This document shows, in pieces, positions 28,105 through 47,200 of a stretch of 47,912 nt of DNA; position 1 is the stretch's first letter, and each line of letters begins with the position of its first letter. Under the pieces are notes generated by a model. That model did not search any database. It was not told where the DNA came from and was given only the letters and a program-made list of their open reading frames with translations. The translations under genes and the position numbers were made by a program. Origin of the DNA: a virus; IMG/VR virus record IMGVR_UViG_3300050026_000188; one strand, written 5' to 3'.

Positions 28105-28106
28105 TT

Positions 28107-28304: not shown

Positions 28305-28364
28305 CGCACGCGCCCCAGTGAAAAACGAAAGCGGCTCCCGATGATCTGAGAGCCGCGCTCGGGT

Positions 28365-29318: not shown

Positions 29319-29413
29319 GTTATTTCTCCTTAGTTAGATAATTGATTGCATTTTGAAGGGTTTCGAGGTTGTCTTTGAGAAGTCCTAAAGCAACATTGCA
29401 GGGATGGCAGTAA

Positions 29414-30544
29414 TCAACCCTTCCCAAATACTCTGCGTGCAGCAGTATTATTCTGTGGCACCAGTTTTACAGCGCCAGGAATAATTGAAGAGTAATTATT
29501 ACTGACGGCTTCGTCAAGTCCTAATCGATCCGCCTGAGCTGGCGAGACAACACCGGGTTTGCTAAGGTTTTTTCCCAGCATTTGACCGATAGTTATGAGT
29601 TGATCAATGGGAATATTCCACTGGCGGCGGCCCTTGCCCGGCTCTGCGACGTAATAGGGCACTGACGCGCCCGCTCTCAGGTTGGCGAGCGTCAACGCCC
29701 TAAGTCCTTCAACGCGAGCCCCTAGCCTCTCGTATGCCCTTTCGAGCATCCTGAGTTCAAGGCCGGCAGCCTGGGGCGTGAGGTTATGAGGTTGGCGAGC
29801 CGTTGCAAATTCCGCGTCACTGTATGCGGCTCTCTGCAGAGCTTCGCACGCATGGCGGCCGGGACAATGGCAGCACTCGGGATTTGTGGAAGCCATCGGC
29901 TTAGGGCTATACGCCTGGGTTGCCGCGGCCTGCATCGCGATCATATGGGCGCGGGCAGTGACTTCGCCCCATATGTAATTGTGCGTTCGGACGGGCTCGC
30001 CGCGGTGATAGCAGCGGGGTTGGATTACGGTAAAGCTCACTGAGATGTTGGCAGGATCTCCCAGTAGAGCAGGCTTCAACGTCTCGATAATTCCGGACGC
30101 ATAGAGCAAACCTTGCTTGTTGAAATACTCATCTACAAACCCGTGACCATACTTGTAGTCGAATACCTCAAGGTGCATTCGAGCGAGATCGAACGTCCAA
30201 ACGTCAGGAGTGCCGCCGCATTCCTCATGGATCTCGGGAATGCTAACCCACTCTTCGATATGAAGCATCCCCGGCGTGATTGGATTGATCCGGCGTGCAA
30301 CCGTCTCCGCGATGAGTTCCGCGCCGTCGAGCATCTCGCCGGTGATGATTACACCGTTGGGGGCGCTTGAGCCCTCAGAGTACAACCGGCCTGCCAACAT
30401 CTCAGTACCAACCCAATGGGCCGCGGTCCCTTCAACGCTCTCGGGGGTATCGTCTTGGGAAAACTCCTTATTCATTTTCGGCCATTGGGCACACTTAGAC
30501 CAGGCCGCCGCGCCAGAAGGGGGAAGAAACGCATGTACAGTCAT
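29414..30544 (-). CDS. PD-(D/E)xK nuclease, DUF2800-like (Cas4/RecB-like, Cys cluster)
   Basis: N-terminal FLPPSGAAAWSKC, internal ECCHCPGRHAC cysteine cluster; adjacency to the SSB-like gene. Confidence 0.55.
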   Translation of the reverse strand: MTVHAFLPPSGAAAWSKCAQWPKMNKEFSQDDTPESVEGTAAHWVGTEMLAGRLYSEGSSAPNGVIITGEMLDGAELIAETVARRINPITPGMLHIEEWVSIPEIHEECGGTPDVWTFDLARMHLEVFDYKYGHGFVDEYFNKQGLLYASGIIETLKPALLGDPANISVSFTVIQPRCYHRGEPVRTHNYIWGEVTARAHMIAMQAAATQAYSPKPMASTNPECCHCPGRHACEALQRAAYSDAEFATARQPHNLTPQAAGLELRMLERAYERLGARVEGLRALTLANLRAGASVPYYVAEPGKGRRQWNIPIDQLITIGQMLGKNLSKPGVVSPAQADRLGLDEAVSNNYSSIIPGAVKLVPQNNTAARRVFGKG

Positions 30545-31242
30545 CCGATTATCGCTTTCACGGCTGCCATAACTTGAGGTACCAGATCAAGCCGGTTTGC
30601 GAGCAATGGCAGAGAGGGCACGCCGACAGCGACAACGGCCGCGGAAAGCTGCTCATTCGTGAGCGTCTTCGCATTGATCGCCGCCGACGCAACCGAGAGA
30701 AGCGTTACATATGACTGGCGATCTTCTACAACGGCCGCCGGCACTGGGGGAGCGGGGATCGCGGGAGCGGCAGCGGCGGGCAACATCATCAGCGCTTTGA
30801 GTTCGGCTTCAACCAGCGCAACGGTACCCTCATCGATCCCGCGCTTCTTGCGCCAGGTAGAATCAGCGTTTTTCGCCCGGCTGCTCGCATGAATACGCTC
30901 ATCCCAGGGCAGGCCCGTTCTATCGAGACGATCATTCTCAGCGACGGCGGCCACTACCGGCGGGTTGGGAACCAGGGCGATACCTGCAGCCGGCGCAGTT
31001 ACGCCGAAGATTGCGGCAGCTTCAAGCTCGCTAACGGGCTCTTCGTCTACGTTTACGGCTTCGGGGATCGGATGGGCAGCAAAGACGGCCGCGGCTTCGA
31101 GATCCTCAGGCTCATCACCAGTTGTAAAGGCCGGAATCTCTGCCGCAGCTTCCTCTGAATAGGGAAAATCGAGAATGAATCCGCTAAGTGACTCACGTTG
31201 GGCTTTGCTCAGTAAAGATAGATCCACAGTAATTTGCAGCAT
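30541..31242 (-). CDS. Hypothetical replication-module protein
   Basis: ATG at 31242 with GGAGGGG upstream; conserved-looking LPWDERIHASSRAKNADSTWRKKRG block; Pro/Ala-rich segments. Confidence 0.35.
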   Translation of the reverse strand: MLQITVDLSLLSKAQRESLSGFILDFPYSEEAAAEIPAFTTGDEPEDLEAAAVFAAHPIPEAVNVDEEPVSELEAAAIFGVTAPAAGIALVPNPPVVAAVAENDRLDRTGLPWDERIHASSRAKNADSTWRKKRGIDEGTVALVEAELKALMMLPAAAAPAIPAPPVPAAVVEDRQSYVTLLSVASAAINAKTLTNEQLSAAVVAVGVPSLPLLANRLDLVPQVMAAVKAIIG

Positions 31243-31381
31243 ATAGATAATTTCCCCTCCCAAGGGTTTATATGAGAAATTTAGCTCATTACTAACGCCC
31301 GCGTCAACATGTAATTTACAAATACCGAGATACACGATACAAATAACGAAGCGGTCAACATAACGTCAGGTAGCTTACATA

Positions 31382-33124
31382 ATGCCCCCCGTCCTACGCC
31401 CCTTCCAAGTCGATTTAGAGCGCGATTGCTACGCAGCATGGGACGCCGGCGCGGTCAACGTTATGCCAGTGGCGGCCACGGGCAGCGGTAAGACGGTCCT
31501 GCTCTCCAAAATTGCTTATGACGAACCAGGGGCATCTATCGCGGTTGCCCATCGTCAAGAGCTTGTGAGTCAGATCGCCGTAGCGCTTGCCCGTAATGGC
31601 GTCAGGCATCGCGTAGTTGGCGCGAAAAAAGGCTCCGCCCTGGTGCGAGTGATTACGGCGCTGCAGGTTGCCGAACTCGGTTACAGCTTCCTCGATCCGA
31701 ACGCTAAAACCGGCGTGGGCGGCGTTGATACCGTAATCCGGATGGCTAATGAGCCCTGGTTTCTGCAGGTGCGATTACAGATCCAAGACGAAGGGCACCA
31801 CGTACTAAAAACTAACAAGTGGGGGAAGGTTGTTGAGATGTTCCCCAACGCCCGCGGGCTCTTCCCTACCGCTACGCCGTCGCGAGCGGATGGTAAGGGG
31901 CTGGGGCGGCACGCCGACGGCATCACAGACGCGTTAGTGCTCGCGCCATCCATGCGGGGCATTATCAACATGGGGTATCTGACGGATTACCGTCTTCTCT
32001 GCCCGAAGTCTACTTTGGATCTCACAAACGTAGCGATAAGCTCAGCAACCGGCGATTTCAATATTGATCAGGTACGGAAGGCCGTTCACGATTCGAGCAT
32101 CACGGGCGACGTTGTAAAACACTATCTGCAATTCGCCGCCGGCAAACTGGGGATCACATTCGCGGTAGACGTTGAGGAAGCCGGCAAGATCGCGAACGCC
32201 TTCAAAGCCCAGGGCGTACCGGCCGAAGTGGTGAGCGCGAAGACTCCCGATGCACTCCGCGCCGCGATCCTTCGGCGCTTCAAGCGGCGCGAGATCCTTC
32301 AACTCGTAAACGTCGATCTCTTCGGCGAAGGCTTCGATCTGCCGGCGATAGAGGTTGTGAGCTTCGCCAGGCCGACTCAATCCTTTGCGCTCTACTCTCA
32401 GCAATTCGGCCGCGCCCTACGGCTGATGATCGCCGATGAGCTTCAATCTCGCTGGGGAACCTTCACCGATGAGCAGCGCCGCGAGTTGATCGCTCGAAGC
32501 GTCAAGCCGAAGGCGATCATCTTGGATCACGTAAACAACATCGTTCGGCACAATGGACCGCCGGATAGGGCTCGCGATTGGACGCTTGACCGGCGAGAGA
32601 AACGGGCGAAGGATTCCGATGCGATCCCTATCCGCGTCTGTATTGCGTGCCTACAGCCTTACGAAGCGTTCTATAAGAAATGCCCATATTGCGGGTATTA
32701 CATGGCTCCCGATGCCATCGGCCGAAGTAAGCCCAAGTTTGTAGACGGGGATCTCACCGAATTGGATGCGGAGACGCTCGCAGCGCTCCGCGGGGATATT
32801 GCTCGGATCGATGGTGATTTCTACGCGCCCCAGGGCTTAGACCATTACGCCGCAATGGGGGCAAGGAAGCGCCACGCGGAACGGCAAGAGGGACAGAGAG
32901 CTTTGCGTAACGCGGTCGCGTGGTGGGCAGGTACAGAGCACGCCCGCGGGTACTCAGAGAGCGAGAGTTACCGGCGGTTTTTCTTCCGCTTCGGCATCGA
33001 TGTTGCAAACGCCCAAACTCTCGGGACACGGGAAGCCAGCGAGTTAGCCCTCAAAGTAAATTTGGAATTGCAGAAATACGGCGTTGACGGTACCGTTATT
33101 TCTACAGCGTTAGAGATAATGTGA
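31382..33124 (+). CDS. Superfamily-2 DEAH-type helicase with C-terminal zinc ribbon
   Basis: RPFQ, Walker A ATGSGKT, DEGHH box, CIACLQPYEAFYKKCPYC. Confidence 0.75.
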   Translation: MPPVLRPFQVDLERDCYAAWDAGAVNVMPVAATGSGKTVLLSKIAYDEPGASIAVAHRQELVSQIAVALARNGVRHRVVGAKKGSALVRVITALQVAELGYSFLDPNAKTGVGGVDTVIRMANEPWFLQVRLQIQDEGHHVLKTNKWGKVVEMFPNARGLFPTATPSRADGKGLGRHADGITDALVLAPSMRGIINMGYLTDYRLLCPKSTLDLTNVAISSATGDFNIDQVRKAVHDSSITGDVVKHYLQFAAGKLGITFAVDVEEAGKIANAFKAQGVPAEVVSAKTPDALRAAILRRFKRREILQLVNVDLFGEGFDLPAIEVVSFARPTQSFALYSQQFGRALRLMIADELQSRWGTFTDEQRRELIARSVKPKAIILDHVNNIVRHNGPPDRARDWTLDRREKRAKDSDAIPIRVCIACLQPYEAFYKKCPYCGYYMAPDAIGRSKPKFVDGDLTELDAETLAALRGDIARIDGDFYAPQGLDHYAAMGARKRHAERQEGQRALRNAVAWWAGTEHARGYSESESYRRFFFRFGIDVANAQTLGTREASELALKVNLELQKYGVDGTVISTALEIM

Positions 33125-33429
33125 GTGAGAGGCATTACCGAGCCGTGATGATCTATATTGCAGGACCGATGACCGGAACCCCAGAGTTCAATTTCCCAGC
33201 TTTTCATGCGGCGGCTAAAACTCTCAGGCACGAAGGCTTTGATGCTGTAAGCCCGGCTGAGATTTGCCCCGAACTCGGTAGAACCTGGGATTACTACATG
33301 CGAAAAGATCTCGCAGAGATGCTCAAGTGCGACACGATCTATCTGCTCAAGGGCTGGGAGAAATCAAAAGGCGCTTCGCTTGAGCATTGCGTTGCTGAAG
33401 CTCTGGGAATGACGGTGATCTTTGAATAG
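33121..33429 (+). CDS. DUF4406-like protein (nucleoside 2-deoxyribosyltransferase-like fold)
   Basis: IYIAGPMTG ... DTIYLLKGWEKSKGASLE pattern. Confidence 0.6.
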   Translation: MSERHYRAVMIYIAGPMTGTPEFNFPAFHAAAKTLRHEGFDAVSPAEICPELGRTWDYYMRKDLAEMLKCDTIYLLKGWEKSKGASLEHCVAEALGMTVIFE

Positions 33430-33904
33430 ATCGGTCATCCAATGGGCCATTCGCAACCGAGTGAATGAGATCGCGCTCAGGGAACTCCGCGCAATTTTCA
33501 ATCTCGAAGGCGCTCACGCAATTCCGACAATGCTGGCGACCAGTGAGGCAGCCGTGCAAGCCAAAGTGAGACTCGAAGCCGCTCACAAGGGGCTCAAGCT
33601 CTGGAGAAATAACGTTGGGGCGCTCTTAGATAGCAGGGGCGTGCCGGTACGCTACGGGCTCGCGAATGATAGCGCCATTCTCAATAAGAGCATCAAGTCG
33701 GGGGATTTGATCGGATGGCGGCCGGTGCTGATTGGACCTGAGCACGTCGGGAGCATGATCGCCCAGTTTGTAAGCCGTGAGTGCAAGCGTCCCGACTGGC
33801 AATACACCGGCGACGATCACGAAAAGGCCCAGTTACGCTGGGCGGAAGCGGTGGTAGCGGACGGCGGCGATGCGGCTTTCTGTAACTCAGAAGGTAGCTT
33901 ATAA
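33422..33904 (+). CDS. VRR-NUC-like nuclease
   Basis: LWRNNVGA...SGDLIGW...AQFVSRECKRP...Q pattern resembling the VRR-NUC PD-(D/E)xK core. Confidence 0.5.
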   Translation: MNRSVIQWAIRNRVNEIALRELRAIFNLEGAHAIPTMLATSEAAVQAKVRLEAAHKGLKLWRNNVGALLDSRGVPVRYGLANDSAILNKSIKSGDLIGWRPVLIGPEHVGSMIAQFVSRECKRPDWQYTGDDHEKAQLRWAEAVVADGGDAAFCNSEGSL

Positions 33905-34609
33905 ATGGTCTACGTCGGAGGTAAATCTAAAGTCGCGAAAGATCTGGCTGCCATTATCTCGCTCTTCAGTCCCCGCGTTTATTGGGAGCCCTTCGTGGGA
34001 GCCGGGACCGTCATCCAATACGTCAAAGCTCCCGTAAAAATTGGAAGCGATTTAGACATTCATATCGCTTCGTTTTTGGAGTGCGTTCGAGACGGATGGC
34101 TTCCGCCGGCTGAGGTTTCCGAGAGTGACTATCAGTTTCTCAAGAGTTATGTACCTCTCACTCGCGAGTGCTACGCGACAAAGGCGGCCATCGGTTATGG
34201 ATGCTCTTTCGGAGGTAAATGGTTTGGCGGATTTGCGCGAAACACCCGGCATAGTTCCTATGCCGGGTATGTCTATAACTCATCCCGCAAACAAAGCCCT
34301 TTGTTGCAAGGTATTCAATTCAAAAATCAGAGTTACCTTGACGGTCTGCCCGAAGGTGTTGATCTCATCTATTGCGATCCCCCTTACGCAAATACCACCA
34401 GTTGCGGGAGCGGCCGACAGTTCGATTCAAAGCTATTTTGGGACTGGTGTAGAGCCGTAGCTCTTCGAGGTATCACCGTCCTGGTTACAGAGTTCACCGC
34501 GCCGGATTTCGCAATGGAGATTTGGCGCAAAGAGAAGCCGGCCGATTTGCGGCGCGGAGATAACAAAGGTATGACAGAGAAATTGTTTCTAGTTAGGGGA
34601 GCAGCATGA
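33905..34609 (+). CDS. DNA adenine methyltransferase, Dam family
   Basis: Motif I YWEPFVGAGTV and motif IV LIYCDPPY in alpha-class order. Confidence 0.85.
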   Translation: MVYVGGKSKVAKDLAAIISLFSPRVYWEPFVGAGTVIQYVKAPVKIGSDLDIHIASFLECVRDGWLPPAEVSESDYQFLKSYVPLTRECYATKAAIGYGCSFGGKWFGGFARNTRHSSYAGYVYNSSRKQSPLLQGIQFKNQSYLDGLPEGVDLIYCDPPYANTTSCGSGRQFDSKLFWDWCRAVALRGITVLVTEFTAPDFAMEIWRKEKPADLRRGDNKGMTEKLFLVRGAA

Positions 34610-34926
34610 GCAACAAGCGATTCAAACCAACCATCAGACGCGAGCTTATTTTGAGAGCAGCAATCGAGAGCGCCAGGCAGCCCGGCGGCTGGTCACTGAT
34701 TACGCGCCAGGTAATCGCCAACGCTGCCGGCTGCTCTGAGGGATTAGTATCCCGCTACCTGGGCGATATGAAGGATGCGCGGCGTGTCATTATGAAAGCC
34801 GCGATTCGGGACGAAATTACGGAAATAATTTACCAAAGTCTTGTCGCACACGACGGTTACGCCGTAAAGAAGTGGCTTCCCGAACCCCTCAAGCAAAAGG
34901 CCCTTCGCAGCGTAATGGATCTGTAA
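34606..34926 (+). CDS. Small helix-turn-helix DNA-binding protein
   Basis: ITRQVIANAAGCSEGLVSRYLGD resembles a TetR-type HTH. Confidence 0.4.
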   Translation: MSNKRFKPTIRRELILRAAIESARQPGGWSLITRQVIANAAGCSEGLVSRYLGDMKDARRVIMKAAIRDEITEIIYQSLVAHDGYAVKKWLPEPLKQKALRSVMDL

Positions 34927-34932
34927 CCGAAA

Positions 34933-35022
34933 ATGTTCTACATCTACATTCATTGCAGACCAGACGGCACCCCCTTCTACGTCGGTAAGGGGCATGGCGC
35001 TCGGGCTAGAAACTTGGAATAA
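34933..35022 (+). pseudogene. Remnant of a GIY-YIG homing endonuclease (29 codons)
   Basis: MFYIYIHCRPDGTPFYVGKGHGARARNLE-stop: a GIY-YIG N-terminal motif cut short; below the ORF-track size cutoff. Confidence 0.55.
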
Positions 35023-35037
35023 GGGGCTCAAGCAAGC

Positions 35038-37401
35038 GTGAATCAATTCATCGTTTACCGAAGGTCCGACAAGGCTCCCGTTGACTACCGCACGGGCAAG
35101 CCCGCGAACGCTCACGATTCCTCAAATTGGACAGACGTAGCAACAGCATCCAGTGTTGCTCAGGCATGGGGCGCTGAGTGGGGCATCGGTTTTGTTCTTA
35201 CGGAGCAATCGCAGATCGCTGTGATCGATGTGGACGGTTGCCGCAATCCGCAGACTGGGGAAATAAGCCTCATCGCTCAAACATTGATCACCATGCTTGC
35301 TGGTGCTTATGTTGAGATCAGCATCGGTGGGAAGGGCATCCACATCTGGTTTCGTTATAGCGGGGCGATGCCCCCGCACGCGAGCAGGGCGGCCGGAATT
35401 GGCGAGTTTTATCACAAGGATAGATACATCGCGATTGGCGCTCCTTATGCGGCTCCCAGCTTCACAAACGGAAGTCTGGGGACGGACCATACTGTATCTC
35501 TTCCATCTCTGATTGCTACGTTCTTTCCCCCTGACGCTTCGAGCGTCGGTGAGAGCGAATGGACTACCGAGCCCCGCGAAGATTGGAACGGGCCGCTAGA
35601 GGATAGCGAGTTGTTGCGCCGCGCCATGCAGAGCCGCTCGACGGCAAGCGCCTTCGGCGGTAAGGCGTCCTTTGCGGACTTGTGGCTCGCTAACGAGTCT
35701 GTACTCGCTGTGAGCTACCCTGACGCCAACGGGAGAGCCTACGACGCGAGCGCCGCCGATGCTGCCCTGGCTCAGCACTTGAGCTTTTGGACGGGTGGAG
35801 ATTGCGCTCGTATCGAGCGATTGATGAGGGGCTCAAAGCTAGTCAGGGAGAAGTGGGAACGTAACGCAGACGTGTACTCCGGTCCGGGTATGGGATATAT
35901 CCCCCGCACCATCCTGGGCGCTTGTGGTCGGCAGCTTGAGGTACTCTCTGATGCCGCCAGCGCCCCCGTACCGCCCCCGCCGGGCACGGTGAGCCATGCG
36001 CCCACCCCCAGGGGCGGCGATGGCTTCCTGGACTCTGAGAAGCAACAGGCTCACTTTGGGCAGTGCGTCTATGTGAGCGGCCAAAACAGAGCCTTAGTGC
36101 CTGACGGCTCGCTAATGAAGCCCGACGCCTTCCGCGTGCGATACGGCGGTTTCAATTTCAATCTCGATACTCAGAATATGAAGACAACCCGGGACGCCTG
36201 GGAAGCGTGGACGCAAAACCAGGTTTACAAATGCACTGAGGTAGACGGGATATGCTTCAAGCCCAATCTACCGGCGCGGAGCATCGTACACGCCAACGGT
36301 CAGACCTTTATCAACACCTTTATCCCCGTCGACATTCGGCGCGTTGTGGGCGACGCCAGTCCCTTCCTCAACCATCTCGCGAAGGTACTGCCCGATGAGC
36401 GCGACCGTACGATTTTGCTCTCGTATATGGCGGCGTGCGTCCAACATCAGGGAATCAAATTCCAATGGGCTCCCTTGCTGCAGGGCGTTGAGGGGAACGG
36501 CAAGACGCTCTTTGCGCGATGCGTAGAGCAGGCCGTTGGTACTCGATACACCTATTGGCCGAAGGCAGCGAAGATCTCCGCAACCTTCAATGCATGGATG
36601 GCTAACAAAGTCTTCTATGCGGTCGAAGATATTTATGTTCCCGACTCGAAGCGCGAGATCCTCGAAGACTTGAAGCCGATGATCACGGGGGACAAAATCG
36701 AGATCGAAGCGAAGGGCATCGATCAATTCATCTCGGATATTTGCGGTAACTTTATGTTCAATTCCAACCATCTTGACGCGATCCGGAAGACTGAGAATGA
36801 TCGCCGCTTTTGCGTGCTCTTTAGCGCTCAGCAACAGTCAAGCGACCTGAGACGGGACGGACTAACGGAGAGTTACTTTGTAGCCTTGTACAACTGGCTT
36901 AGAGAAGAGGGCTACGCGATAGTCAACGAGCTTCTATTTACCTACGCGATCCCCGCGGAGTTGAATCCCGCCGGCGACTGCCAGCGAGCGCCGGTCACCA
37001 CCAGCACCTCTAAGGCCATCAAAGACGGCCTGGGCAGCCTTGAGCAAGAGATCGCGGAAGCCGTCGCCCAGGGCTTGCCGGGCTTCTCTGGTGATTGGAT
37101 ATCTACAACCTGGCTTGAGCGCCTTCTAGAGCGGATGCGGCTAAACAAGATATCACACTCGAAGCGTAAACAGATCCTTGAGCAGATGGGTTATATCTAC
37201 CATCCCGCGCTCACTGACGGCCGCCCCAACAATCCCGTGCTGCCCGACAACACAAAGCCGCGGCTCTTCGTACTCGCCGGATCCCTGACTTCGCAGATCC
37301 CGACGGCCGCGGCAGCCACGAAGCATTATGAAGCCGCCAACGCAAATAAGAGCCCCGTAGGGCTCCCGTTCGCTGCTCATCAGTTTGGGCGCTCTAACTA
37401 G
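35038..37401 (+). CDS. DNA primase-helicase (PrimPol-like N-terminus + SF3 helicase)
   Basis: IAVIDVDG primase-type DxD motif; Walker A GVEGNGKTLF and Walker B FYAVEDI; GTG start with AAGGGG upstream. Confidence 0.75.
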   Translation: MNQFIVYRRSDKAPVDYRTGKPANAHDSSNWTDVATASSVAQAWGAEWGIGFVLTEQSQIAVIDVDGCRNPQTGEISLIAQTLITMLAGAYVEISIGGKGIHIWFRYSGAMPPHASRAAGIGEFYHKDRYIAIGAPYAAPSFTNGSLGTDHTVSLPSLIATFFPPDASSVGESEWTTEPREDWNGPLEDSELLRRAMQSRSTASAFGGKASFADLWLANESVLAVSYPDANGRAYDASAADAALAQHLSFWTGGDCARIERLMRGSKLVREKWERNADVYSGPGMGYIPRTILGACGRQLEVLSDAASAPVPPPPGTVSHAPTPRGGDGFLDSEKQQAHFGQCVYVSGQNRALVPDGSLMKPDAFRVRYGGFNFNLDTQNMKTTRDAWEAWTQNQVYKCTEVDGICFKPNLPARSIVHANGQTFINTFIPVDIRRVVGDASPFLNHLAKVLPDERDRTILLSYMAACVQHQGIKFQWAPLLQGVEGNGKTLFARCVEQAVGTRYTYWPKAAKISATFNAWMANKVFYAVEDIYVPDSKREILEDLKPMITGDKIEIEAKGIDQFISDICGNFMFNSNHLDAIRKTENDRRFCVLFSAQQQSSDLRRDGLTESYFVALYNWLREEGYAIVNELLFTYAIPAELNPAGDCQRAPVTTSTSKAIKDGLGSLEQEIAEAVAQGLPGFSGDWISTTWLERLLERMRLNKISHSKRKQILEQMGYIYHPALTDGRPNNPVLPDNTKPRLFVLAGSLTSQIPTAAAATKHYEAANANKSPVGLPFAAHQFGRSN

Positions 37402-37603
37402 CCGCCTTTCTCGGATGCACGTAGCCGCACTTAGAGCACGGCTTGCGGCGTTGGGTTGCTGTGAGTGGCGTCCCGCACTTAGCGCACGGCTTGAGCTTGA
37501 CGTTGGTAGCCTTCGGCGCTTTGGCGCGGTTGCGCCGCCCGTGCTCGCTGCGAAACTCAGAGTCGGGAATCGTGGTGAGATCCCAATGCGGCGTGTACTT
37601 CAA
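37394..37603 (-). CDS. Small zinc-ribbon-like protein (uncertain)
   Basis: CAKCG ... CSKCG pairs in a 69-aa ORF; overlaps the primase 3' end. Confidence 0.25.
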   Translation of the reverse strand: MKYTPHWDLTTIPDSEFRSEHGRRNRAKAPKATNVKLKPCAKCGTPLTATQRRKPCSKCGYVHPRKAAS

Positions 37604-37824
37604 TTTGAGCCCCCTTATTCAGACAGGTTACTAGTGGGATGATACTATGCGGTGAAGCGCAAGCGGGGCAGGAAATCGCAGAGTCTATAACACTCTGGCA
37701 ATTCTCGCACCAGTAAGCGCCGCTAAGGGAGATGTGAGCCATTAGGCCATCCTCTTGATGAAGAGCGAAACTGCGAGCCCTACGGCGATGCCGGCCACTA
37801 CTCCGACGGTGAAAGCGATTGAGA

Positions 37825-38457
37825 TCATTTGCTCACCCGCTTTAGAAATAATGCCTTCTGACGTTCAATAGCCGCCGAGTACGCCGCCCAGTACGCCGAG
37901 TCCGCCGCCGAGTCCGCCGCCGAGCGCGCCGCCGAGCGCGCCGCCAAGCGCGCCGAGTACGCCGCCGAGTCCACCGCCGAGTCCACCGAGTCCACCGAGT
38001 CCACCGCCGAGTTCGCCGAGTCCGCCGCCCAGTACGCCGAGTCCGCCGCCGAGTCCGCCGCCGAGTACGCCGCCGAGTACGCCGCCGAGCGCGCCGCCGA
38101 GCGCGCCGCCGACTTTTTATCTTCTAACTGAGCAAGCGTAATTTTTCCGTCCATAAAATCGCTCGCGGCTTGCAGCGCTTCGCGAGGGCGCTTGTCGTCA
38201 GGAAACGCCTTCTCAAAATTACCCAGAACTTCCATTGCAAAATCAACAGAGAGTAAAACGATGGCTCGCTTACAGGGCTCCGTAGTCGCTCGCATTGCCC
38301 AGATCGCATGATCTAAGCCGTTGGATTTGAGGATGCGTTTTAGACTGATTTCTTTATCGTCAGTCCACTTGGAGCCGAGTGAAGCTGTCAGAGTTTGTAA
38401 TCCAGCAGAGCAGGCGTTTGCCTTGTGAAGTAGAGCGAGCGTGGTTTTGAGCATCAT
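37825..38457 (-). CDS. Protein with a C-terminal SAA(R/Y/D) tetrapeptide repeat array
   Basis: ATG ATG at 38457 with AGGAGG upstream; non-repetitive N-terminal domain of about 110 aa, then SAARSAARSAAYSAAYSAADSAADSAYW... repeats. Confidence 0.45.
   Translation of the reverse strand: MMLKTTLALLHKANACSAGLQTLTASLGSKWTDDKEISLKRILKSNGLDHAIWAMRATTEPCKRAIVLLSVDFAMEVLGNFEKAFPDDKRPREALQAASDFMDGKITLAQLEDKKSAARSAARSAAYSAAYSAADSAADSAYWAADSANSAVDSVDSVDSAVDSAAYSARLAARSAARSAADSAADSAYWAAYSAAIERQKALFLKRVSK
37871..38112. repeat. GC-rich 12/9-bp tandem repeat array (GCCGCCGAG + 3 nt) inside a coding region
   Basis: About 20 consecutive units readable directly in the sequence. Confidence 0.85.
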
Positions 38458-38483
38458 TGTGAGCGCCTCCTGAGCGCTGATAC

Positions 38484-38512
38484 AGAGTATCAATTTACTA
38501 GTAAGCTGTCAA
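38484..38512 (-). promoter_or_regulatory. Promoter-operator cassette copy 1
   Basis: Minus strand: TTGACA - 17 nt containing TTACTAGTAA - TACTCT, then leader with AGGAGG. Confidence 0.4.
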
Positions 38513-39237
38513 ACATCAGGCTCTACCAGTGGAGCCAGACATTTCGCGGTAATACTGCCGATCCGTTCGGGCGTGAGCTTGGCGGCCTTCTGGCGAGCGT
38601 CTAAGAGCGCTTGCTTGGGGGTATCGCCAGCGCCGCCGCGTTGCCCGGTGTTGATCTCGGTTATGGTGAAACGGACGTTATCATCAGCGACGGTCCCGAA
38701 GCGGATGAGCGCAAAGCTCAGGAGAGGAAACTCGTGGATGCTTACGGGTACGCCCATCCGCTCCGTCTTCGGATCTGTTACCAGTTTGCCGGCAACCATT
38801 ACGGGGATCATTCCCTCTCCGTCTTCATCAAACTTCGCCCGCTTGAGCGCCTTCCTTTGATCCGTCGTCAACGCGCCGGTAAGCGATCTCTTTTGAAGCC
38901 GCTCGCTCTCTTTGTCACTCCAAGCGCTGAGAGTCTTGATCGCAGCGCCGCGGGCAATGATCAGGAAACGCGCCCGCGTCTTTACGTGGCCGGCCTGCCC
39001 CACCACTTCAAGCAGACGGGTACCAACCGGCAGCTTTACGCCGAAGGGCGGATGCCCCTCCTCTAAACCCATTCCTTCGATTTCGTGCTCACTCTCAACG
39101 ATCCTCACCGATTGGATGGTTACGCCCTTCGCCCAGGCTCGCAGGCGCTTACCGTCAATGCAGGCCGGCGCGTGCCCTTCTACGGGGATCGCTACGATGG
39201 GGGCTTTGGCTTTGAGCAGGCTCTTGATATTCATCAT
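38509..39237 (-). CDS. Hypothetical early protein
   Basis: 242-aa ORF downstream of a promoter-like cassette; no recognised motif. Confidence 0.35.
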   Translation of the reverse strand: MMNIKSLLKAKAPIVAIPVEGHAPACIDGKRLRAWAKGVTIQSVRIVESEHEIEGMGLEEGHPPFGVKLPVGTRLLEVVGQAGHVKTRARFLIIARGAAIKTLSAWSDKESERLQKRSLTGALTTDQRKALKRAKFDEDGEGMIPVMVAGKLVTDPKTERMGVPVSIHEFPLLSFALIRFGTVADDNVRFTITEINTGQRGGAGDTPKQALLDARQKAAKLTPERIGSITAKCLAPLVEPDV

Positions 39238-39243
39238 TCCTCT

Positions 39244-39272
39244 AATCTACCAGGTTACTAGTTATCTGTCAA
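39244..39272 (-). promoter_or_regulatory. Promoter-operator cassette copy 2 (variant palindrome, leaderless layout)
   Basis: TTGACA - 17 nt with TAACTAGTAA - TAGATT, then 6 nt to ATG. Confidence 0.4.
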
Positions 39273-39459
39273 TCCAATTCTTTGCCATTATCTCAGCGTC
39301 CCGGCGAAGGATCGTTAGCTCAACGTCGCCCCCGAGTGCCTGACGTTTGAAGCCCAGGGCGACGGCGTATTTATACGGGCTCTGATCTACGGGACCGGCG
39401 ATCTGGCTCACCTTCGCCCAGCGCCGGCCGCGGCGATAGTATTTGACGGGCGGGATCAC
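39262..39459 (-). CDS. Hypothetical small protein
   Basis: 65-aa ORF. Confidence 0.25.
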   Translation of the reverse strand: MIPPVKYYRRGRRWAKVSQIAGPVDQSPYKYAVALGFKRQALGGDVELTILRRDAEIMAKNWIDR

Positions 39460-39502
39460 CAGCGGTCAGCTTTCGCGAAGCAAACGATGATGACTAGCCT
39501 GA

Positions 39503-40180
39503 TCATGCGTCCAACCTCTCGGGGCGGCCGTTGTCGTCTTCGTCGAGATGCCGAGCGGTTTCGGCTTCCTCAGCGCGTATGCGAGCTTGCACCGAGAGAA
39601 AGTGTAGATCGTCGGCGTCAGTCCCCGTGGCATCGCGATCACGCCCAAGAGAGTTTTGCAGATCAAATAGTTCGGGGTGATTAGCCTTGAACGTTTTGAA
39701 GAAATAAGCATCCCGCTCAAGGCCGCGAGTCACTGGTAATTTATTGGTCAGAAGATCCGGCATTTGAATCGAAGGGTCTATTTCCATTGCTAGAGCGAGC
39801 ATCCTGGCCTTGAAATACTCACGGTCGTCCCAGTGGAGAACGATGCATATGGGGGCCAGATCTTGACGCTTAGGCTTCGGGCGGAGAGCTAGTTTACGCT
39901 CTTGCAGTTCAGCGTGAGCTTTGGCGAGTTCGATGCGCTGTCGCCGCTGATCACTCTTTTCGCGCTCGATAGCTAACCGCTCTTCCTGTAACTCAAGCCG
40001 CCGCGCTCGGTTAGCGTCACTCTCAGAAGATGAGTATGCTACGGCTGATCCCCGGATGCACATCTCACAAGTGCTGCTCTGCAAATAACGCTCAGCGATG
40101 TGTCCATTTTTACAGGGCTCACCTGTAAAATACTTTTTGAGCCCCAACGTTATTGCTTGCTGCCGCGTAATTATTTCCAT
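39503..40180 (-). CDS. Zinc-finger plus coiled-coil protein (regulator candidate)
   Basis: N-terminal KKYFTGEPCKNGHIAERY...CEMC; Arg/Glu/Gln-rich coiled segment; first gene leftward of the AT-rich control region. Confidence 0.4.
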   Translation of the reverse strand: MEIITRQQAITLGLKKYFTGEPCKNGHIAERYLQSSTCEMCIRGSAVAYSSSESDANRARRLELQEERLAIEREKSDQRRQRIELAKAHAELQERKLALRPKPKRQDLAPICIVLHWDDREYFKARMLALAMEIDPSIQMPDLLTNKLPVTRGLERDAYFFKTFKANHPELFDLQNSLGRDRDATGTDADDLHFLSVQARIRAEEAETARHLDEDDNGRPERLDA

Positions 40181-40435
40181 GAGTCAAACATTACGCTGGG
40201 AATTATTATCTGTCAAATACCGTATGTAGGATTACCCCGTCGCCCTCACCCCGAAGGCACTTCCGTAGCGCTCTAGGAACGAAGTTTGTCGAAATCAAAT
40301 GTCGTCATATCTATGTATGTAATGATTCCTACCTATTAGTATGTACTATTTCTATTTCTCCTTATTTCTCTCTATGTGTTGATTTGATATATATAAGGGT
40401 AATAGAGAAAAGAGGGTGTAACTCCAATAGAATCA
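40181..40435. promoter_or_regulatory. AT-rich divergent control region with short direct repeats
   Basis: AT-rich island in a GC-rich genome between divergent genes; repeated TATGTA and ATTTCT motifs. Confidence 0.4.
40188..40216 (-). promoter_or_regulatory. Promoter-like element without the palindrome (leaderless layout)
   Basis: TTGACA - 17 nt - TAATGT, then 7 nt to ATG of gene 39503..40180. Confidence 0.35.
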
Positions 40436-41335
40436 ATGACACCCAATAACTACCCCGTAATTACACCGCTAGCCATTCGGGGTAATTCTAAGCGCCCGTT
40501 TGCATTGTGGATGCCCGGCGCGGTAATGTGGGAAGCCAGGGATATGCTCAGTGATCGTCAAAAACGTTTCGTCTTCCATCAGGCTCGCATTACTGATGGT
40601 GCAAAGGCTTACGTATTGGCAGGTTACAGCGAGCAGGGAGCGGCTCAAGGCGCTTCGCGTCTGTTACAGAACGTTGAGATACAGGAAGCTATAGAGGTTG
40701 AGCGGGCGGACCTGGCCCGTGTCGCGAGCCTGAGCCCCGAATGGGTTTTGAATCGATGGATGTTGATCGCCAGCGCGGACCCGAGAGATCTGATCCATAC
40801 CCGCATCGGCTGCTGTCGGCATTGCTGGGGCATTGATAACAAACGGGAATGGATGGAACACGAATACGCTACCGCGCTCAACGAAGCTCTGACTTGCATG
40901 TTGCTGCCGCCGGCCTTCGAGGGTGGCCTAGGGTACTCGCCGACTCGCGAGCCTAACCCTGACTGCCCTAAGTGCAAGGGCGAAGGCTTGCCGCGGACCT
41001 GGCTCGCCGACTCCCGCAAGCTGAGCCGTTCGGCCGCGGCTCTCTTCGCTGGCGTAAAGCAGACGAAGGATGGGATTGAGATCAAGATGCACGATCAGCC
41101 CGAAGCGCTCAAGTCGCTCGCCGATTACCTGGGGATGCAGAACAAGAGCAGCGCCGATGTAAAGCTGGCTGCGGCTCTGGTGGTGGGCGGGAGCGCTAAG
41201 GATCTCTCAGACGATGAGCTTGCCGGCATCATTGAGCGGGGGCGGTTGCGGAGGGCTCGAGCTGCGACTTTGGGGGTATCTGCGGGGGTATTATCGCCGG
41301 CGGCGTTGCCAAGTAAGACAATCGAGGGCACTTAG
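40436..41335 (+). CDS. terS: Terminase small subunit-like protein (SPP1 G1P / Terminase_2-like) with Cys-rich insert
   Basis: LSDRQKRFVFHQARITDGAKAYVLAGYSEQGAAQGASRLLQNVEIQEAI...RVASLSPEWVLNRWMLIASADPRDL matches the small-terminase N-terminal pattern; CCRHC / CPKC cysteines. Confidence 0.65.
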   Translation: MTPNNYPVITPLAIRGNSKRPFALWMPGAVMWEARDMLSDRQKRFVFHQARITDGAKAYVLAGYSEQGAAQGASRLLQNVEIQEAIEVERADLARVASLSPEWVLNRWMLIASADPRDLIHTRIGCCRHCWGIDNKREWMEHEYATALNEALTCMLLPPAFEGGLGYSPTREPNPDCPKCKGEGLPRTWLADSRKLSRSAAALFAGVKQTKDGIEIKMHDQPEALKSLADYLGMQNKSSADVKLAAALVVGGSAKDLSDDELAGIIERGRLRRARAATLGVSAGVLSPAALPSKTIEGT

Positions 41336-41467
41336 TGCCGGCTTCGAGTCCCTAAGTAGGAGCGATGCACTAAAAAGCCCCCTCAGTTGAGGGGGCTGGC
41401 GGCACTCGGGGAGCCGGTTAGATGTGCATAAGAGCGCGATTGGATGCGAGCGAACGGGGGAAGCGTC

Positions 41468-41641
41468 TCAGCGTCGCATTCTTCCGGCGAAGGGATCAGG
41501 GCGGCCCAGGGCTGCTGTGACGCGCGCCAGCTCGATCTGATCAAGCATCGGCAGATCGGGTTTGGAGCCGATCTGATCTTTGATCGTCAGGGCTAAGATG
41601 GTGAGCAAGCTGAGTGCGGCAGGGATAAACAAAATGTACAT
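41468..41641 (-). CDS. Small membrane protein
   Basis: ATG with GGAGGA upstream; hydrophobic helix ILFIPAALSLLTILALTI. Confidence 0.3.
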   Translation of the reverse strand: MYILFIPAALSLLTILALTIKDQIGSKPDLPMLDQIELARVTAALGRPDPFAGRMRR

Positions 41642-41659
41642 GGAATCCTCCAAGTTGAG

Positions 41660-41688
41660 ATATTACCAAGTTACTAGTAAGCTGTCAA
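41660..41688 (-). promoter_or_regulatory. Promoter-operator cassette copy 3
   Basis: TTGACA - 17 nt with TTACTAGTAA - TAATAT, then leader with GGAGGA. Confidence 0.45.
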
Positions 41689-41858
41689 GAGTTATTTTCA
41701 TTTATTTCGAGCGTTTCCGCGTCGCATTCTTCCGGCGAAGGGATTGGGGCGGCCTTTACAACCTGGGCGCATACCAGGTGCATCGCGGCGCGGCGGGCTT
41801 TGCTACTGGGGGACGCGAGCAGGATCGCCAAGCTATCAGAGAGGATCTTCGCGGTCAT
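41685..41858 (-). CDS. Hypothetical small protein
   Basis: Short ORF; 3' end carries the same ~35-bp element as the neighbouring gene. Confidence 0.25.
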   Translation of the reverse strand: MTAKILSDSLAILLASPSSKARRAAMHLVCAQVVKAAPIPSPEECDAETLEINENNS

Positions 41859-42103
41859 GCTGCTACCTCCCACGCCCACGCGCCAGGCTTGTAAGTGCTC
41901 TGCGAGAGCTTCGAGCCGCGGAGAGTGATCACGCGAAGGCTACCGTCTGCCCGCAACACCAGAGCGCCCCCGCGCCGGCGAGCCCAGGCGTTGACGGCCG
42001 CCTTCCATGATGCCGCTTTCGTGGCGTTCGCGAGATTGCGCCATTCGGCAACGGTGAGAAGGTTGGTAGGCTGAGCGTTCGGGTTGAAGTTCGTAACTGT
42101 CAT
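41855..42103 (-). CDS. Small protein, paralogue B (MTVTNFNPNAQPT... N-terminus)
   Basis: Shares N-terminus and 5' leader with the upstream gene. Confidence 0.3.
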   Translation of the reverse strand: MTVTNFNPNAQPTNLLTVAEWRNLANATKAASWKAAVNAWARRRGGALVLRADGSLRVITLRGSKLSQSTYKPGAWAWEVAA

Positions 42104-42406
42104 TTTTGGGGTATCCTCTCGACTGCAGATACAAGAGCCTCAGCGATCCGCCGCAACGTTGCAGCATCGAAGGCGTAGTTATTCGCGGCGTTGATCCTGG
42201 CGGCCATCTCTTCGCAGGTGAGTTCCGGCGTGTTGAGGTAACGAGTGATCTCTTGAAAGAGATCCCCAGTAACTTGGTAATCTATATATGCAGTCGAGAG
42301 GATACAGCAAAATGCTTTCGTGGCGTTCGCGAGCTTGGTAGGCTGAGCGTTCGGGTTGAAGTTCGTAACTGTCATTTTTGGGGTATCTTCTCGACTGCAG
42401 ATACAG
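42015..42406. repeat. Direct repeat of about 95 bp (42015..42133 and 42314..42406) carrying leader + N-terminal coding sequence of two adjacent small genes
   Basis: Near-identical copies differing by one 28-bp indel and one substitution. Confidence 0.8.
42100..42375 (-). CDS. Small protein, paralogue A (MTVTNFNPNAQPT... N-terminus)
   Basis: ATG at 42375; the ORF track starts at 42414 with an alternative codon. Confidence 0.3.
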   Translation of the reverse strand: MTVTNFNPNAQPTKLANATKAFCCILSTAYIDYQVTGDLFQEITRYLNTPELTCEEMAARINAANNYAFDAATLRRIAEALVSAVERIPQK

Positions 42407-42433
42407 ATTAGCAAGTTACTAGTAAGCTGTCAA
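42405..42433 (-). promoter_or_regulatory. Promoter-operator cassette copy 4
   Basis: TTGACA - 17 nt with TTACTAGTAA - TAATCT. Confidence 0.4.
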
Positions 42434-44165: not shown

Positions 44166-44231
44166 CCGTATCCCCAAAAATACCCCTCTCGGCTTGCGCT
44201 TTACCCGCCCAGAGGGTGGTGCTAGTTACTC

Positions 44232-47200
44232 CTAGTTACCAATGCAAATATAGCGAATTGCGTCACTACCTAAACCGCCATCATCTGAAAATGTCACCGA
44301 CGATCCACTTGTGTAAGTAACTCCCAGTGCGTTAAGATTGATGGTGCTGACTGTTGCGCTCGTCATACAGGCATAAGAGGATGAACTGGTAAATATGGCT
44401 GACCCGCTAAATGTCACCGTTGCAGCACCACCAGAAAGCGTCGTCAAGCCCATCACTGTGTGCGCAGATGTCAGTTGCGTCCCGGCGGCGTTGTAGAGCG
44501 TTCCACCAGGGCACCCCGTCCCATCCGCAAGGCAGTGGGCTTCTGGTACTCCGCTACCATTCAAGTCTGTGCTGCCCGCTCCTGCTGAAGATACACCTGT
44601 GCTACTTACTTGAAACTGGCTACTTGAACCAACGGATAGCAACGCCGCTGGCGAAGTCGTCCCGATGCCGACGTTGCCTTGGAAAATACCTCCACCTGTT
44701 CCAACCCACAGACTCTTCCAACGTTGGCCCGTAACCCCAAGGTTAATCGTATTATCGAAGGCGGGGGCCGGATTAAGACCAGTTGCGGTTAATTGCATTA
44801 CATCCTCATAAGCTGGGGAACCCGGCAGCTCAAAAGCGAGCGTGGTATACGTGCTCTGCGCACCAATCCTTAAAACATTATAGGTGCTGTCCAAATATAT
44901 AAAGGCTGGCGGCGTCTGCCCATTTATTACGATTGGGTTGGCAAAGACTGTAGGATTTCCGGCGATAGTCAGGCCGCCCGTGCGCAATGCGCCAGTGCCA
45001 AGATCAAGAGCCTGTACAGGGCTCGTCGTCCCGATACCGACGTTGCCGTTATTATCTATCCTGACCTTTTCCGTTGGTCCACTAAGACCATCATTTTGCG
45101 TGAGAAAACGAATCTGCGATAGTGTATTTTGCGAACCAGATACGATGTCAAGTATTCGTGCATAGATGCCTGCCGTTGGGAAATTTTGAGCTTGGTAAAA
45201 ATTGAAAACACCTTGGTCACTAATACCATATGTTCTTAAATTAGTATCAGTAGACGGATTTCCCAAAGACAACTGCCCACTCGGCCCCGTCGTCCCGATG
45301 CCGAGTCTATGATTCGTCGCATCCCAGAAGAAATTGGAATTGTCTTGTGCGATGGTTGAGCCATTTGAGAACAACACGGAGCCAGAGGTTAGCGAAGGCA
45401 AAGTGAATGTCCCGTAAGTATTTGTGTCCAGCGCAAACGTCCCTGCTGCCGTCATCTTTACGAATGGTGTGCCCGTAGTCCATGTCGGATAATTCAACGC
45501 GCCCCATGTGCCTACGGAAGGCAGAGCCGTGCATCCCCCGCTGGACATCAATGCGCCAGAGCAAGAGCCGGAACCAAACAGCGCCGTTATATCGCTGTAT
45601 AGCGGAGTGCGCCACGCCGTGTTCCCACTATTCGCCACGCCAATCGTGTTTGCTCCGGGGTAGGTCATGGTACTGCCCGGAGTCTGCCATCCCTGAGCTG
45701 TTGCCCCAGAGTTCATCCCCCAGACTTGGTTTGCCGTGCCGTTGGTGCTGAGGTTTGTGGCTGTGGATGAGTTGCCAGTAAAAGCGGCTCCATGAAGTGT
45801 CGCTAATCCGGCTGCACTACCGAAGTATTCATCAGTTACCGCAGCATTGCCAATTACTGCTGTGTTGGAACCTGCTCCAACTGCCGTCGATCCTACTACA
45901 ATTTCGTTTGTGTTACCATTCGCACTTGCCTGTGTGTTCTGCCCCAGGAAAGTCCCGTAGCTACCCGTTATATTATGATACCCAGTAGGAAGTAAAGTTC
46001 CTGCTAAATAGCCCGCTGCTGTATTACCATTGCCCGTAGTAGTGAACTGAAGCGCCCCACTTCCAATTCCGGTACTGTAACTCCCAGAAGAGTTTGTAGC
46101 TAGGGTATTATTTCCGATTCCTATGTTATTGCCCCCACTTGTAAGATTGTAGAGGGCAGAGTCCCCTAAGCCTATATTGTTACTACCTGTCTCTATGCCA
46201 CCGTAACCTATTGCCTCAGCACCTATCGCGATATTGAATGATCCAGAGGCACCAAGTAGGTTTGATGTACCTATGGCAATGTTCACTGTGCCGGTAGAAC
46301 TTGCTAAAGTGCTACTATTACCGATGGCAATCGAACTAGCTCCTCCATACGTCAAGGGCAAACCGCCCCCTAAATTCAGATTAGAAGATGGGATGGTATA
46401 AATTGCGACCCCACTATCCTGAACCTGGTCCCCTGTTCCGGTAAAGGTTACGGCATCATTGGCGGTTGCGCTGCCGGGTCCGGTGACTGGGTTGGTAAGC
46501 GCGAGTTGGAAGTCCGTAGCCGCATGAGTCGCCGCCGTCCCTACCGTTGTAGAACAGCCGCTCGCTCCGTTGCTCAGATCGCCACATGCTGCTTGACTGA
46601 ATGTTGCGCTGCCGTTCGACTTGACCGCGCCTGTCACGGCCCCCGCGTTGTCCGCCTTCGTGCCTTGTGCCGCCGTGGCATAAGCCGTGGACGCGGTGTA
46701 AGCCGCCGACCCAACCGCACCGCTGCCAAGCAGCACCGAGCCACTTCCATAGGTACTTAGCTCGCCCAGCACGCCGCTGTTGTTGTACTCGATGTGGCCA
46801 GTCGTGCCACCCGCAATCGTCGTGGTGCCTACGGTGATCGTTCCAGCAGATGCGGATATGGTACAGGTTCCACCCAGGGCGCAGTTCTGGCCGTTGACCG
46901 TAGTCACCGAGTTTGCTAAGGCTGCGTTCGGTACCGCCTCATACGTCACCGTGTTCGTACCGGTCACTACCGGTACGGTGTTGGTTGAAGGGCTGGAACC
47001 GTAGCTAACTCCATTCACCACTGCAACCGTGGGAGTTGCGGTCGTCACTGCTGTCAACTGCCCCGCTGCGTTGTAGGTGATAACTGGTATCGCTGTCGCG
47101 CTTCCCGTCGGCCCTGCCGCCGTAATGACCCCACCCGAGGGGACGTGGCTTGCCGATGTGCCGATAGGGAGGTAGGAATAGCCCACAGTCCCAGACGAGA

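Follow-up and report, generated by a model that had tools for sequence, protein, structure and literature searches.

A phage Imm5-like protein with a hypervariable tandem array of short Ala/Ser-rich units

The subject of this analysis is a gene on the minus strand of a viral DNA stretch of 47,912 nucleotides (nt), IMG/VR record IMGVR_UViG_3300050026_000188, the whole of which we refer to as the window. This gene, at positions 37825-38457, is a genuine, conserved phage gene, and sequence comparison places its product, the phage Imm5-like protein, in the Pfam family PF21805 (Imm5_like) as a divergent branch. In the middle of the protein there is a tandem array of three- and four-residue units, in which turnover at the DNA level is combined with selection at the peptide level. 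As for its role, we infer, tentatively and at a little less than even confidence, a protein that binds and neutralises another protein through a rapidly evolving helical hairpin.

The reading frame and its conservation

The coding sequence is complete, with 210 codons followed by the stop codon TGA (37825-37827), and is supported by the open reading frame (ORF) and its translation, by Pfam and PHROG matches and by its substitution pattern. The same frame stays open further upstream, up to a TTG at 38493 in the ORF listing; homologues begin with MMLKTT or MLKTT, and for this reason we take the ATG at 38457 to be the real start. A Shine-Dalgarno sequence, AGGAGG, can be read 8 nt upstream of this ATG (38466-38471, minus strand). 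When 111 non-repetitive codons were compared with those of two relatives (contigs L008 and L009), the ratio of non-synonymous to synonymous substitution rates (dN/dS) was 0.056-0.091, that is, about 0.06 to 0.09, at synonymous divergences (dS) of 0.84-1.69, which indicates strong purifying selection in this frame. What is more, one word-seeded search returned 333 homologues, and an exhaustive HMMER search, with the 115 non-repeat residues alone as the query, matched at least 1,442 cluster representatives (clusters at 50% identity) at E-values up to 1e-3, and 334 at E-values up to 1e-10.

One could still argue that the ORF is an antisense artefact, kept open by nothing more than the lack of stop codons in GC-rich repeats, and it is true that six of the six frames are stop-free across the array. 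The original prediction had described the opposite strand as open and without a start codon; this understated the openness, which extends to all six frames and not to one, but it holds in so far as no ORF of at least 40 amino acids overlaps the array on either strand besides the Imm5-like one. That said, the artefact explanation is effectively refuted. Namely, the 115-residue non-repetitive part is conserved in the 1,442 cluster representatives, at a dN/dS of about 0.06, homologues in the hundreds share the frame, the gene has a ribosome-binding site and is translationally coupled to its neighbour through an ATGA overlap, and the product passes a Pfam gathering threshold.

Close relatives were also sought at the nucleotide level. 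A megablast search of GenBank phages with 4 kb around the gene gave no match, tblastn against the same phages with the repeat masked gave distant homologues only, and an exact 26-nt anchor had no match in metagenome contigs; a single-protein scan of viral contigs recovered nothing beyond the same IMG/VR contig.

Structure of the array

The array occupies residues 116-196 (81 amino acids, 243 nt; 37870-38112, minus strand) and consists of 22 units of 12 or 9 nt, of the general form TCG GCG [GCG] NNN. Tandem Repeats Finder reports it at 37871-38112 with a period of 12, 21.7 copies, 79% matches and a score of 204, the periods of 9, 21 and 33 being alternative descriptions of the same DNA. Fifteen of the 22 units have four residues (SAAR, SAAY, SAAD, WAAD, SAVD, LAAR, WAAY) and the other seven have three (SAY, SAN, SVD, SAR, SAA). 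The original prediction had placed the array correctly, but its roughly 25 consecutive tetrapeptides are in fact 22 units of mixed length; the non-repetitive N-terminal part, given there as about 110 residues, is present and is 115 residues long, and a 14-residue non-repetitive helix at the C-terminus (IERQKALFLKRVSK; residues 197-210, 37828-37869, minus strand) was missing from that layout.

With one mismatch allowed, the two-unit pattern TCGGCGGCGNNNTCGGCG has 14 occurrences, 14 of 14 on the minus strand and inside the array, against a chance expectation of 0.03 from 100 dinucleotide-preserving shuffles. Superimposed on the short units is an exact direct repeat of 43 nt, recognised as an exact run at an offset of 141 nt, with its upstream copy at 38023-38065, encoding ..SAADSAADSAYWAA, and its downstream copy at 37882-37924 (both minus strand).

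Turnover of the array

A contig from the Logan assembly of SRR23247762 (L003) aligns by blastn to window positions 27825-42092 and differs from the window, over 14 kb, by one true single-nucleotide polymorphism outside the repeat-overlap region and otherwise only by a gap of 141 nt (47 codons) in the array. This gap can be placed at 37925-38065 (minus strand) or, as any position of its ends within the 43-nt repeat is equivalent, at alternatives such as 37882-38022, and removal of the segment recreates the L003 gene exactly. The same short allele is carried by a contig from a second sample (L004), and the long allele is found in a further IMG/VR contig (L050), whose gene is identical to that of the window. 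As assembled, the short form is a derived deletion, because the long form has unique units (SAN, SAVD, SVD, SVD and others) that no duplication could create.

Similar differences are seen elsewhere in the family. In contig L005 (positions 1458-2918), two tandem paralogues show 0 mismatches in the 351 nt of the N-terminal domain and are also identical over about 65 nt upstream, and their arrays, of 75 and 94 amino acids, differ in the order of units. Among 121 family proteins there are seven pairs with 100% identical N-terminal domains, and the array differs in all seven, which shows that variation is frequent and not how frequent it is, as the database was clustered at 90% identity and pairs with identical arrays are hidden. 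Across the family, array lengths range from 12 to 114 amino acids with a median of 67. The suggestion that slippage-prone repeats of this kind may vary in number between genomes is thus borne out by comparison of related genomes, as represented in assemblies.

Codon usage indicates how the arrays are made. In the window, Ser in the array is encoded by TCG in 19 of 19 cases and Ala by GCG in 33 of 34, with mixed codons in the N-terminal domain; L008 and L009 keep TCG and GCG in their arrays though synonymous sites in their N-terminal domains are near saturation, and distant lineages have fixed codon sets of their own, namely AGT with GCA/GCG, TCA with GCA/GCC, or GCC/GCA. Codons this monotone imply that a small number of founder units serve again and again to rebuild the arrays. 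At the same time, the same peptide pattern of three small residues followed by a variable one (small-small-small-X) is obtained from TCG and from AGT, Ser codons that are not interconvertible by a single synonymous step, which points to selection on the peptide. We strongly infer that slipped-strand or unequal recombination between repeats adds and removes units, at a pace that would outrun point substitution.

Could the array be nothing more than a tolerated low-complexity expansion, in which slippage of a GC-rich Ala/Ser stretch inflated an ordinary helix and length variation reflects mutation pressure only? The monotone codons, together with paired duplicate units (RR YY DD), do show recent amplification at the DNA level, structure prediction over the array is of low confidence, and canonical members of the family work without any array. 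However, arrays are widespread across phage lineages, in frame and between the same two conserved elements, helical periodicity is kept through the mixture of four- and three-residue units, and the small-small-small-X pattern has been built from non-interconvertible Ser codons, so that we consider this explanation quite improbable. Less probable by far is that the DNA itself is the functional element, with the 12/9-bp repeats acting as origin iterons or as a recombination hot spot and the coding being incidental. Replication-origin iterons embedded in a gene are familiar from lambda gene O, the array lies beside a primase/helicase module, and its GC content is 76% as compared with 56% for the genome. 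Yet across lineages it is the peptide pattern that is conserved and not the DNA of the units, on which ground origin iterons were dropped, the same architecture recurs in many unrelated phages with different replication genes, and no AT-rich unwinding region adjoins the array in the sequence.

Finally, 20 of the 80 IMG/VR contigs retrieved by motif (L053-L132) end inside the array, from which it follows that arrays break, and may collapse, short-read assemblies. With a quarter of the viral contigs bearing arrays ended by them, the consequence is a systematic fragmentation of phage assemblies and possibly a mis-measurement of gene lengths. In two records of metagenome-assembled genomes (MAGs), L019 and L026, a stretch of N/X takes the place of the array in the family gene, a further sign that the repeat is handled as problematic sequence.

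Family placement

The window protein matches PF21805 with 37.5 bits against a gathering cutoff of 25 (E-value 2.5e-9), over residues 62-175 and model positions 7-109 of 129, and the natural short allele (P0001) does so with 42.1 bits. A Pfam search had been proposed in the original prediction, which also felt loosely reminded of Ala-rich helical proteins proposed as immunity proteins, and this impression agrees with the description of the matched family, 'Imm-5 like putative immunity protein'. The protein also matches PHROG 18326, a family with no assigned function, at an E-value of 6.9e-18, and the Imm5 family proper (PF14423) gives 10.1 bits, under its gathering cutoff of 25 bits, at an E-value of 0.86. 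When a profile of the phage branch was aligned with canonical PF21805 members by hhalign, the probability was 99.4% (E-value 1.1e-21), and the alignment began at the helix that precedes the signature motif, took in the Ala-rich region and ended at the terminal helix. Foldseek against BFVD returned uncultured-phage proteins, one of them labelled 'Imm-5-like domain-containing protein'. The phage Imm5-like protein belongs to a Pfam family that already exists, and UniProt already gives this label to similar phage proteins. Neither PADLOC, with its anti-phage defence models, nor NCBIfam gave a match for the window protein, and searches of the PDB by sequence and by profile, using the phage-branch, Imm5-positive relative and canonical profiles, gave nothing significant and did not recover the immunity protein SsdAI. 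In the searchable literature, nothing relevant was found on PF21805, Imm5_like, DUF7666, DUF6931 or the repeat peptides, and neither experimental work on the array branch nor a description of it was found.

The pattern [FY]P[DE]D[KT]RPRxA was found at at least 137 viral loci and, in a scan covering one genome per species, at 37 genome loci, 37 of 37 lying in MAGs of diverse bacteria and archaea. Many of these MAG loci encode non-repetitive proteins of about 160 amino acids with full-length matches to PF21805 at E-values of 1e-40 to 1e-46. The canonical domain is about 130 amino acids long, with six helices and no repeats, and its alignment has invariant F, E, Y, P, D, R, P, R, A, W and G, three His and a terminal E..WQ. 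The His triad consists of H81, H108 and H112, and is accompanied by conserved Glu, Asp and Cys. The window protein has the family signature FE..[YF]P.D.RPR.A, which admits Y or F at its YP step, in the form FEKAFPDDKRPREA (residues 81-94; 38176-38217, minus strand).

How, then, does the phage form differ from the canonical one? The two share a score above the gathering cutoff, the first helix, the FE..YPDDKRPR.A loop and helix that follow it, and probably the last helix, ER.(W)Q (canonical ER.WQ...L), to which hhalign aligns IERQKALFLKRV of the window protein, a segment that lacks the Trp. The canonical members, by contrast, are non-repetitive, have the His triad and are chromosomal in bacteria and archaea, whereas the phage form is phage-borne, has gained an N-terminal domain of about 60 residues, and carries the hypervariable array in place of three central Ala-rich helices (about 64 residues, from 'ASL.SHAAAR' to just before 'ER.WQ'). 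Residues 116-196 contain no His, and a full six-helix domain is not found in the window protein, which is a divergent, non-canonical branch of PF21805 because the array replaces the central segment and the His triad is gone. Of the family members examined, a large share have an array. Such arrays occur in many phage lineages and are always in frame and always between the same two elements; on other branches, the same core plus array is preceded by other N-terminal modules (DUF7666, DUF6931, PF27195).

Canonical PF21805 loci were seen in L016, L018, L021, L024, L028, L030, L033, L037, L041-L043, L046 and L049, from Anaerolineae, methanogen, Micrarchaeota, Nitrososphaerales and other MAGs. The canonical sequences suggest a standalone, possibly metal-binding protein rather than a toxin-linked immunity protein. 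Stretches resembling the Imm5-like core also recur within giant proteins, with 12 in P0121 (2410 amino acids), seven in P0129 (3069 amino acids) and four in P0244 (1390 amino acids); in P0121 and P0244 they form tandem modules of about 190 residues, each with an FEK.YP.DLRPRKA motif followed by a divergent Ala-rich segment.

Predicted structure

An AlphaFold2 model of the window protein, built with a 37-sequence alignment, has a mean predicted local distance difference test (pLDDT) value of 71. Residues 1-115 are at 77-97 by 10-residue block and divide into two parts. The first is an accessory alpha/beta domain (residues 1-61; 38275-38457, minus strand; TTL..L....AC..G ... SNGL.DAIW), modelled at pLDDT 88-97 with two short strands plus helices and with T5, T6, C16, G47 and W53 near-invariant; it lies outside the canonical Imm5_like domain, the Pfam match beginning only at residue 62. 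The second comprises the conserved core helices of the Imm5_like domain (residues 62-115; 38113-38274, minus strand), delimited by the Pfam match and hhalign. At the other end, the C-terminal helix, the probable counterpart of the canonical 'ER.WQ..L' helix as judged from pLDDT and hhalign, is modelled at about 90 over the last 10-residue block.

The structure prediction that had been called for in the original prediction does give two long helices for the repeat region (residues 108-153 and 163-209, interrupted at SVDSVDSAV), but at a pLDDT of 38-55 over the array. The natural short allele is modelled at a pLDDT of 82, with helices at 108-134 and 139-162. Taken together with the models, the arrangement is probably an antiparallel hairpin whose length scales with the number of units, since the chain must come back for the C-terminal helix to dock on the globular part. 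Independently of AlphaFold, a Fourier analysis of large versus small residues in 117 arrays gave a median peak at 97 degrees (3.71 residues; interquartile range 92.5-100), the window array peaking at 98.5 degrees. The 4:3 mixture of units accordingly has the period of an alpha helix and brings the X residues close to a single face. In composition, the arrays are 44% Ala and 22% Ser, followed by Arg (6.2%), Tyr (5.6%), Asp (4.2%), Glu (3.9%) and Trp (3.6%), while Lys, Leu, Ile, Phe and Met each account for about 1% or less. A classical coiled coil with a hydrophobic core was considered, the period being about 3.65-3.71, and rejected, as Leu, Ile, Phe and Met are each at or below 1% and only Ala and Ser are left to form a core.

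Possible function

The reading that we favour, tentatively as stated at the outset, can be put as follows. The array would fold as long helices packed through Ala and Ser, probably as an antiparallel hairpin projecting from the globular part, and the mixing of four- and three-residue units would align the X residues (Arg, Tyr, Trp, Asp, Glu) along a single face of the helix. The outcome would be a binding surface that is variable in both length and sequence. Residues of the types found at X are enriched in the binding hot spots of protein interfaces. During infection, the protein would most likely act stoichiometrically, binding and neutralising a protein of the host or of a competitor, much as immunity or anti-defence proteins do, with a toxin, a nuclease, a deaminase or a defence effector as candidate targets, and the turnover of repeats could let it track a changing target.

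An example of a helical inhibitor is SsdAI, the all-helical immunity protein of the single-stranded DNA deaminase SsdA of the type VI secretion system; it has been shown experimentally to inhibit SsdA, a DYW-like deaminase toxin, acting as a substrate mimic that blocks the DNA-binding cleft (PMC7901873, PMC12494967). For the DYW clade of deaminase toxins, the predicted immunity family is Imm5 (PMC3239186). This chain from SsdA through the DYW clade to Imm5 is weakly consistent with the Pfam name.

Several observations weigh against a binding and neutralising role. In particular, neither in the window nor in any of about ten phage contexts inspected does a toxin or defence gene stand beside the Imm5-like gene, and canonical chromosomal members have unrelated housekeeping neighbours. 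The 'immunity' in the name of PF21805 is a label given by weak resemblance and not by functional data, and the canonical His triad with its Glu, Asp and Cys hints at a metal site and not at an inhibitor, the phage forms being without these His. Moreover, given the low pLDDT over the array, the model does not establish hairpin geometry or even stable folding, and the short allele comes from k-mer-based short-read assemblies, in which individual array lengths may be unreliable.

Would the same data be expected if the array were passive? This is the main rival, the neutral expansion, the DNA-level role and the antisense artefact discussed above being progressively less likely. According to it, the array is an Ala-zipper helical stalk or an element of self-association, whose exact sequence is unimportant and whose length is near neutral, which we regard as somewhat unlikely; that the function would then reside in the N-terminal domain and the FE..YPDDKRPR motif, for instance in a replication-associated or regulatory role, we hold doubtful to the same degree. 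It is the N-terminal domain and the motif that are under strong purifying selection and that are confidently folded, the gene repeatedly adjoins genes for DNA polymerase, primase or helicase loader, and array length varies ten-fold without an obvious optimum. On the other hand, the X position is non-random, being mostly R, Y, W, D or E, with K, L, I and F rare, and the peptide pattern has been rebuilt with codon sets that vary between lineages, which argues for selection on the displayed residues; similarly, the median array of 67 residues is close to the replaced segment of about 64, which argues that length is constrained.

Returning to the binding reading, one may extend it to the whole group: array-bearing Imm5-like proteins would be widespread, undescribed phage binders for counter-defence or immunity, with a helical 'paratope' diversified by turnover of units and not by point mutation. 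We think this extension unlikely. An Ala/Ser scaffold displaying Tyr, Trp, Arg and Asp could by analogy be compared with the targets of diversity-generating retroelements and with minimalist synthetic antibody codes, and alleles would differ even between phages more than 99.9% identical. If the binding-surface reading is true, the array would be a common and easily recognised marker of phage-host or phage-phage conflict, given a minimum of 1,442 clusters (50% identity) with matches to the non-repeat part and no fewer than 137 IMG/VR contigs with the strict motif. Specificity would then evolve by repeat turnover, giving a handle for finding the host systems targeted, and the protein would represent a natural, minimalist scaffold for helical binders. 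Whichever reading applies, the 'immunity protein' label in Pfam and UniProt is to be taken as unproven.

Comparison with known systems

Imm5 proteins (PF14423), predicted immunity proteins of polymorphic toxin systems that accompany DYW-clade deaminase and CdiA-CT toxins (PMC3239186, PMC3482391), resemble the phage protein in being all-alpha and in a weak profile similarity over the core and the Ala-rich region. Relatives such as P0050 reach an E-value of 1.4e-8 against this family, far from that of the window protein, which moreover has no adjacent toxin gene. SsdAI (PDB 7jtu chain B) is 14% identical to the window protein, with no sequence-level match, and is without a tandem array; likewise, the DUF416 or YjaG-like helical proteins (PDB 3f7c, 2q9r) have no repeat array and no sequence similarity.

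Other likenesses are physical and not evolutionary. Ala-rich hairpins with a periodicity of about 11 residues are represented by the type I hyperactive antifreeze protein 'Maxi' (PDB 4ke2), but the phage protein is intracellular and has no Thr-x10 ice-binding motif. Right-handed 11/3-15/4 coiled coils, such as tetrabrachion (1fe6), are similarly alike in physical terms, whereas the phage array has no hydrophobic core residues. As in proteins with in-frame variable-number tandem repeats, or contingency-type proteins, units are short and in frame and their number shifts by slippage or unequal recombination. However, unlike in contingency repeats, the phage units are multiples of 3 nt, so that length and sequence change and the gene is never switched off.

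Genomic setting

The window is the genome of a tailed, myovirus-like phage, with genes for the small and large terminase subunits, portal, protease, sheath, tube and tape measure, as well as for DNA polymerase, a Gp2.5-like single-stranded DNA-binding protein, exonuclease, helicase and primase-polymerase, and the Imm5-like gene lies in its replication/accessory arm. It belongs to a short leftward operon, from about 40180 to 37394, which is convergent with the primase gene. Early expression is plausible. A possible promoter of its own can be made out by inspection of the sequence upstream (TTGACA, a 17-nt spacer and TACTCT; 38484-38512, minus strand); the consensus scan did not call it, the -10 element being weak and under the threshold of the scanner.

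Its neighbours are an unknown 242-residue protein, a 28-residue peptide, zinc-ribbon ORFs and the primase. The peptide, MISIAFTVGVVAGIAVGLAVSLFIKRMA (37742-37828, minus strand), is hydrophobic by translation and hydropathy, and its ATG overlaps the Imm5-like stop codon (ATGA); a TAATG overlap joins it in turn to the first of two small, Cys-rich, zinc-ribbon-like ORFs downstream (37557-37742 and 37394-37603, minus strand). A conserved partner gene was looked for among these neighbours and the candidates were rejected: the 242-residue upstream gene is absent from the syntenic L008, and the peptide is conserved only in that close relative.

In the phage contexts examined, the Imm5-like gene is always among replication or early accessory genes. 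The neighbours include DNA polymerase A (L005, L010), a DnaA/IstB-like loader (L006), methylases and many small ORFs, and the homologues in Bcep176 (gp36) and Pseudomonas phage AF_046 stand among small early-region genes. Neither an adjacent cognate toxin nor a C-terminal toxin cassette, by which immunity proteins of polymorphic toxins are recognised, was found in these contexts. A polymorphic-toxin neighbourhood was also considered for the chromosomal homologues and rejected, their neighbours being housekeeping genes.

Other features of the window

An ORF of 1220 amino acids (44232-47894, minus strand) has no Pfam or PHROG match. When the window is compared with L050, to which it is 99.7% identical, 20 of the 28 mismatches fall at 44209-44344, that is, in the last 35 or so codons of this ORF and just beyond; this cluster, where L050 ends, could be a variable C-terminal tip or noise at the contig end. 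A tandem duplication of 279 bp (13354-13913; 2.0 copies, 91% matches, Tandem Repeats Finder score 943) extends from the 3' end of the tail-sheath gene (12079-13602) to just before the E217-gp32-like tube gene (13900-14334). Finally, an inverted repeat of 45 nt (42268-42312 and 42376-42420) is 87% complementary, and a direct repeat of 74 nt (42060-42133 and 42332-42405), 97% identical and 272 nt apart, has on the minus strand a sequence like a ribosome-binding site and an ATG, and could represent either a gene start that was duplicated or a regulatory region.

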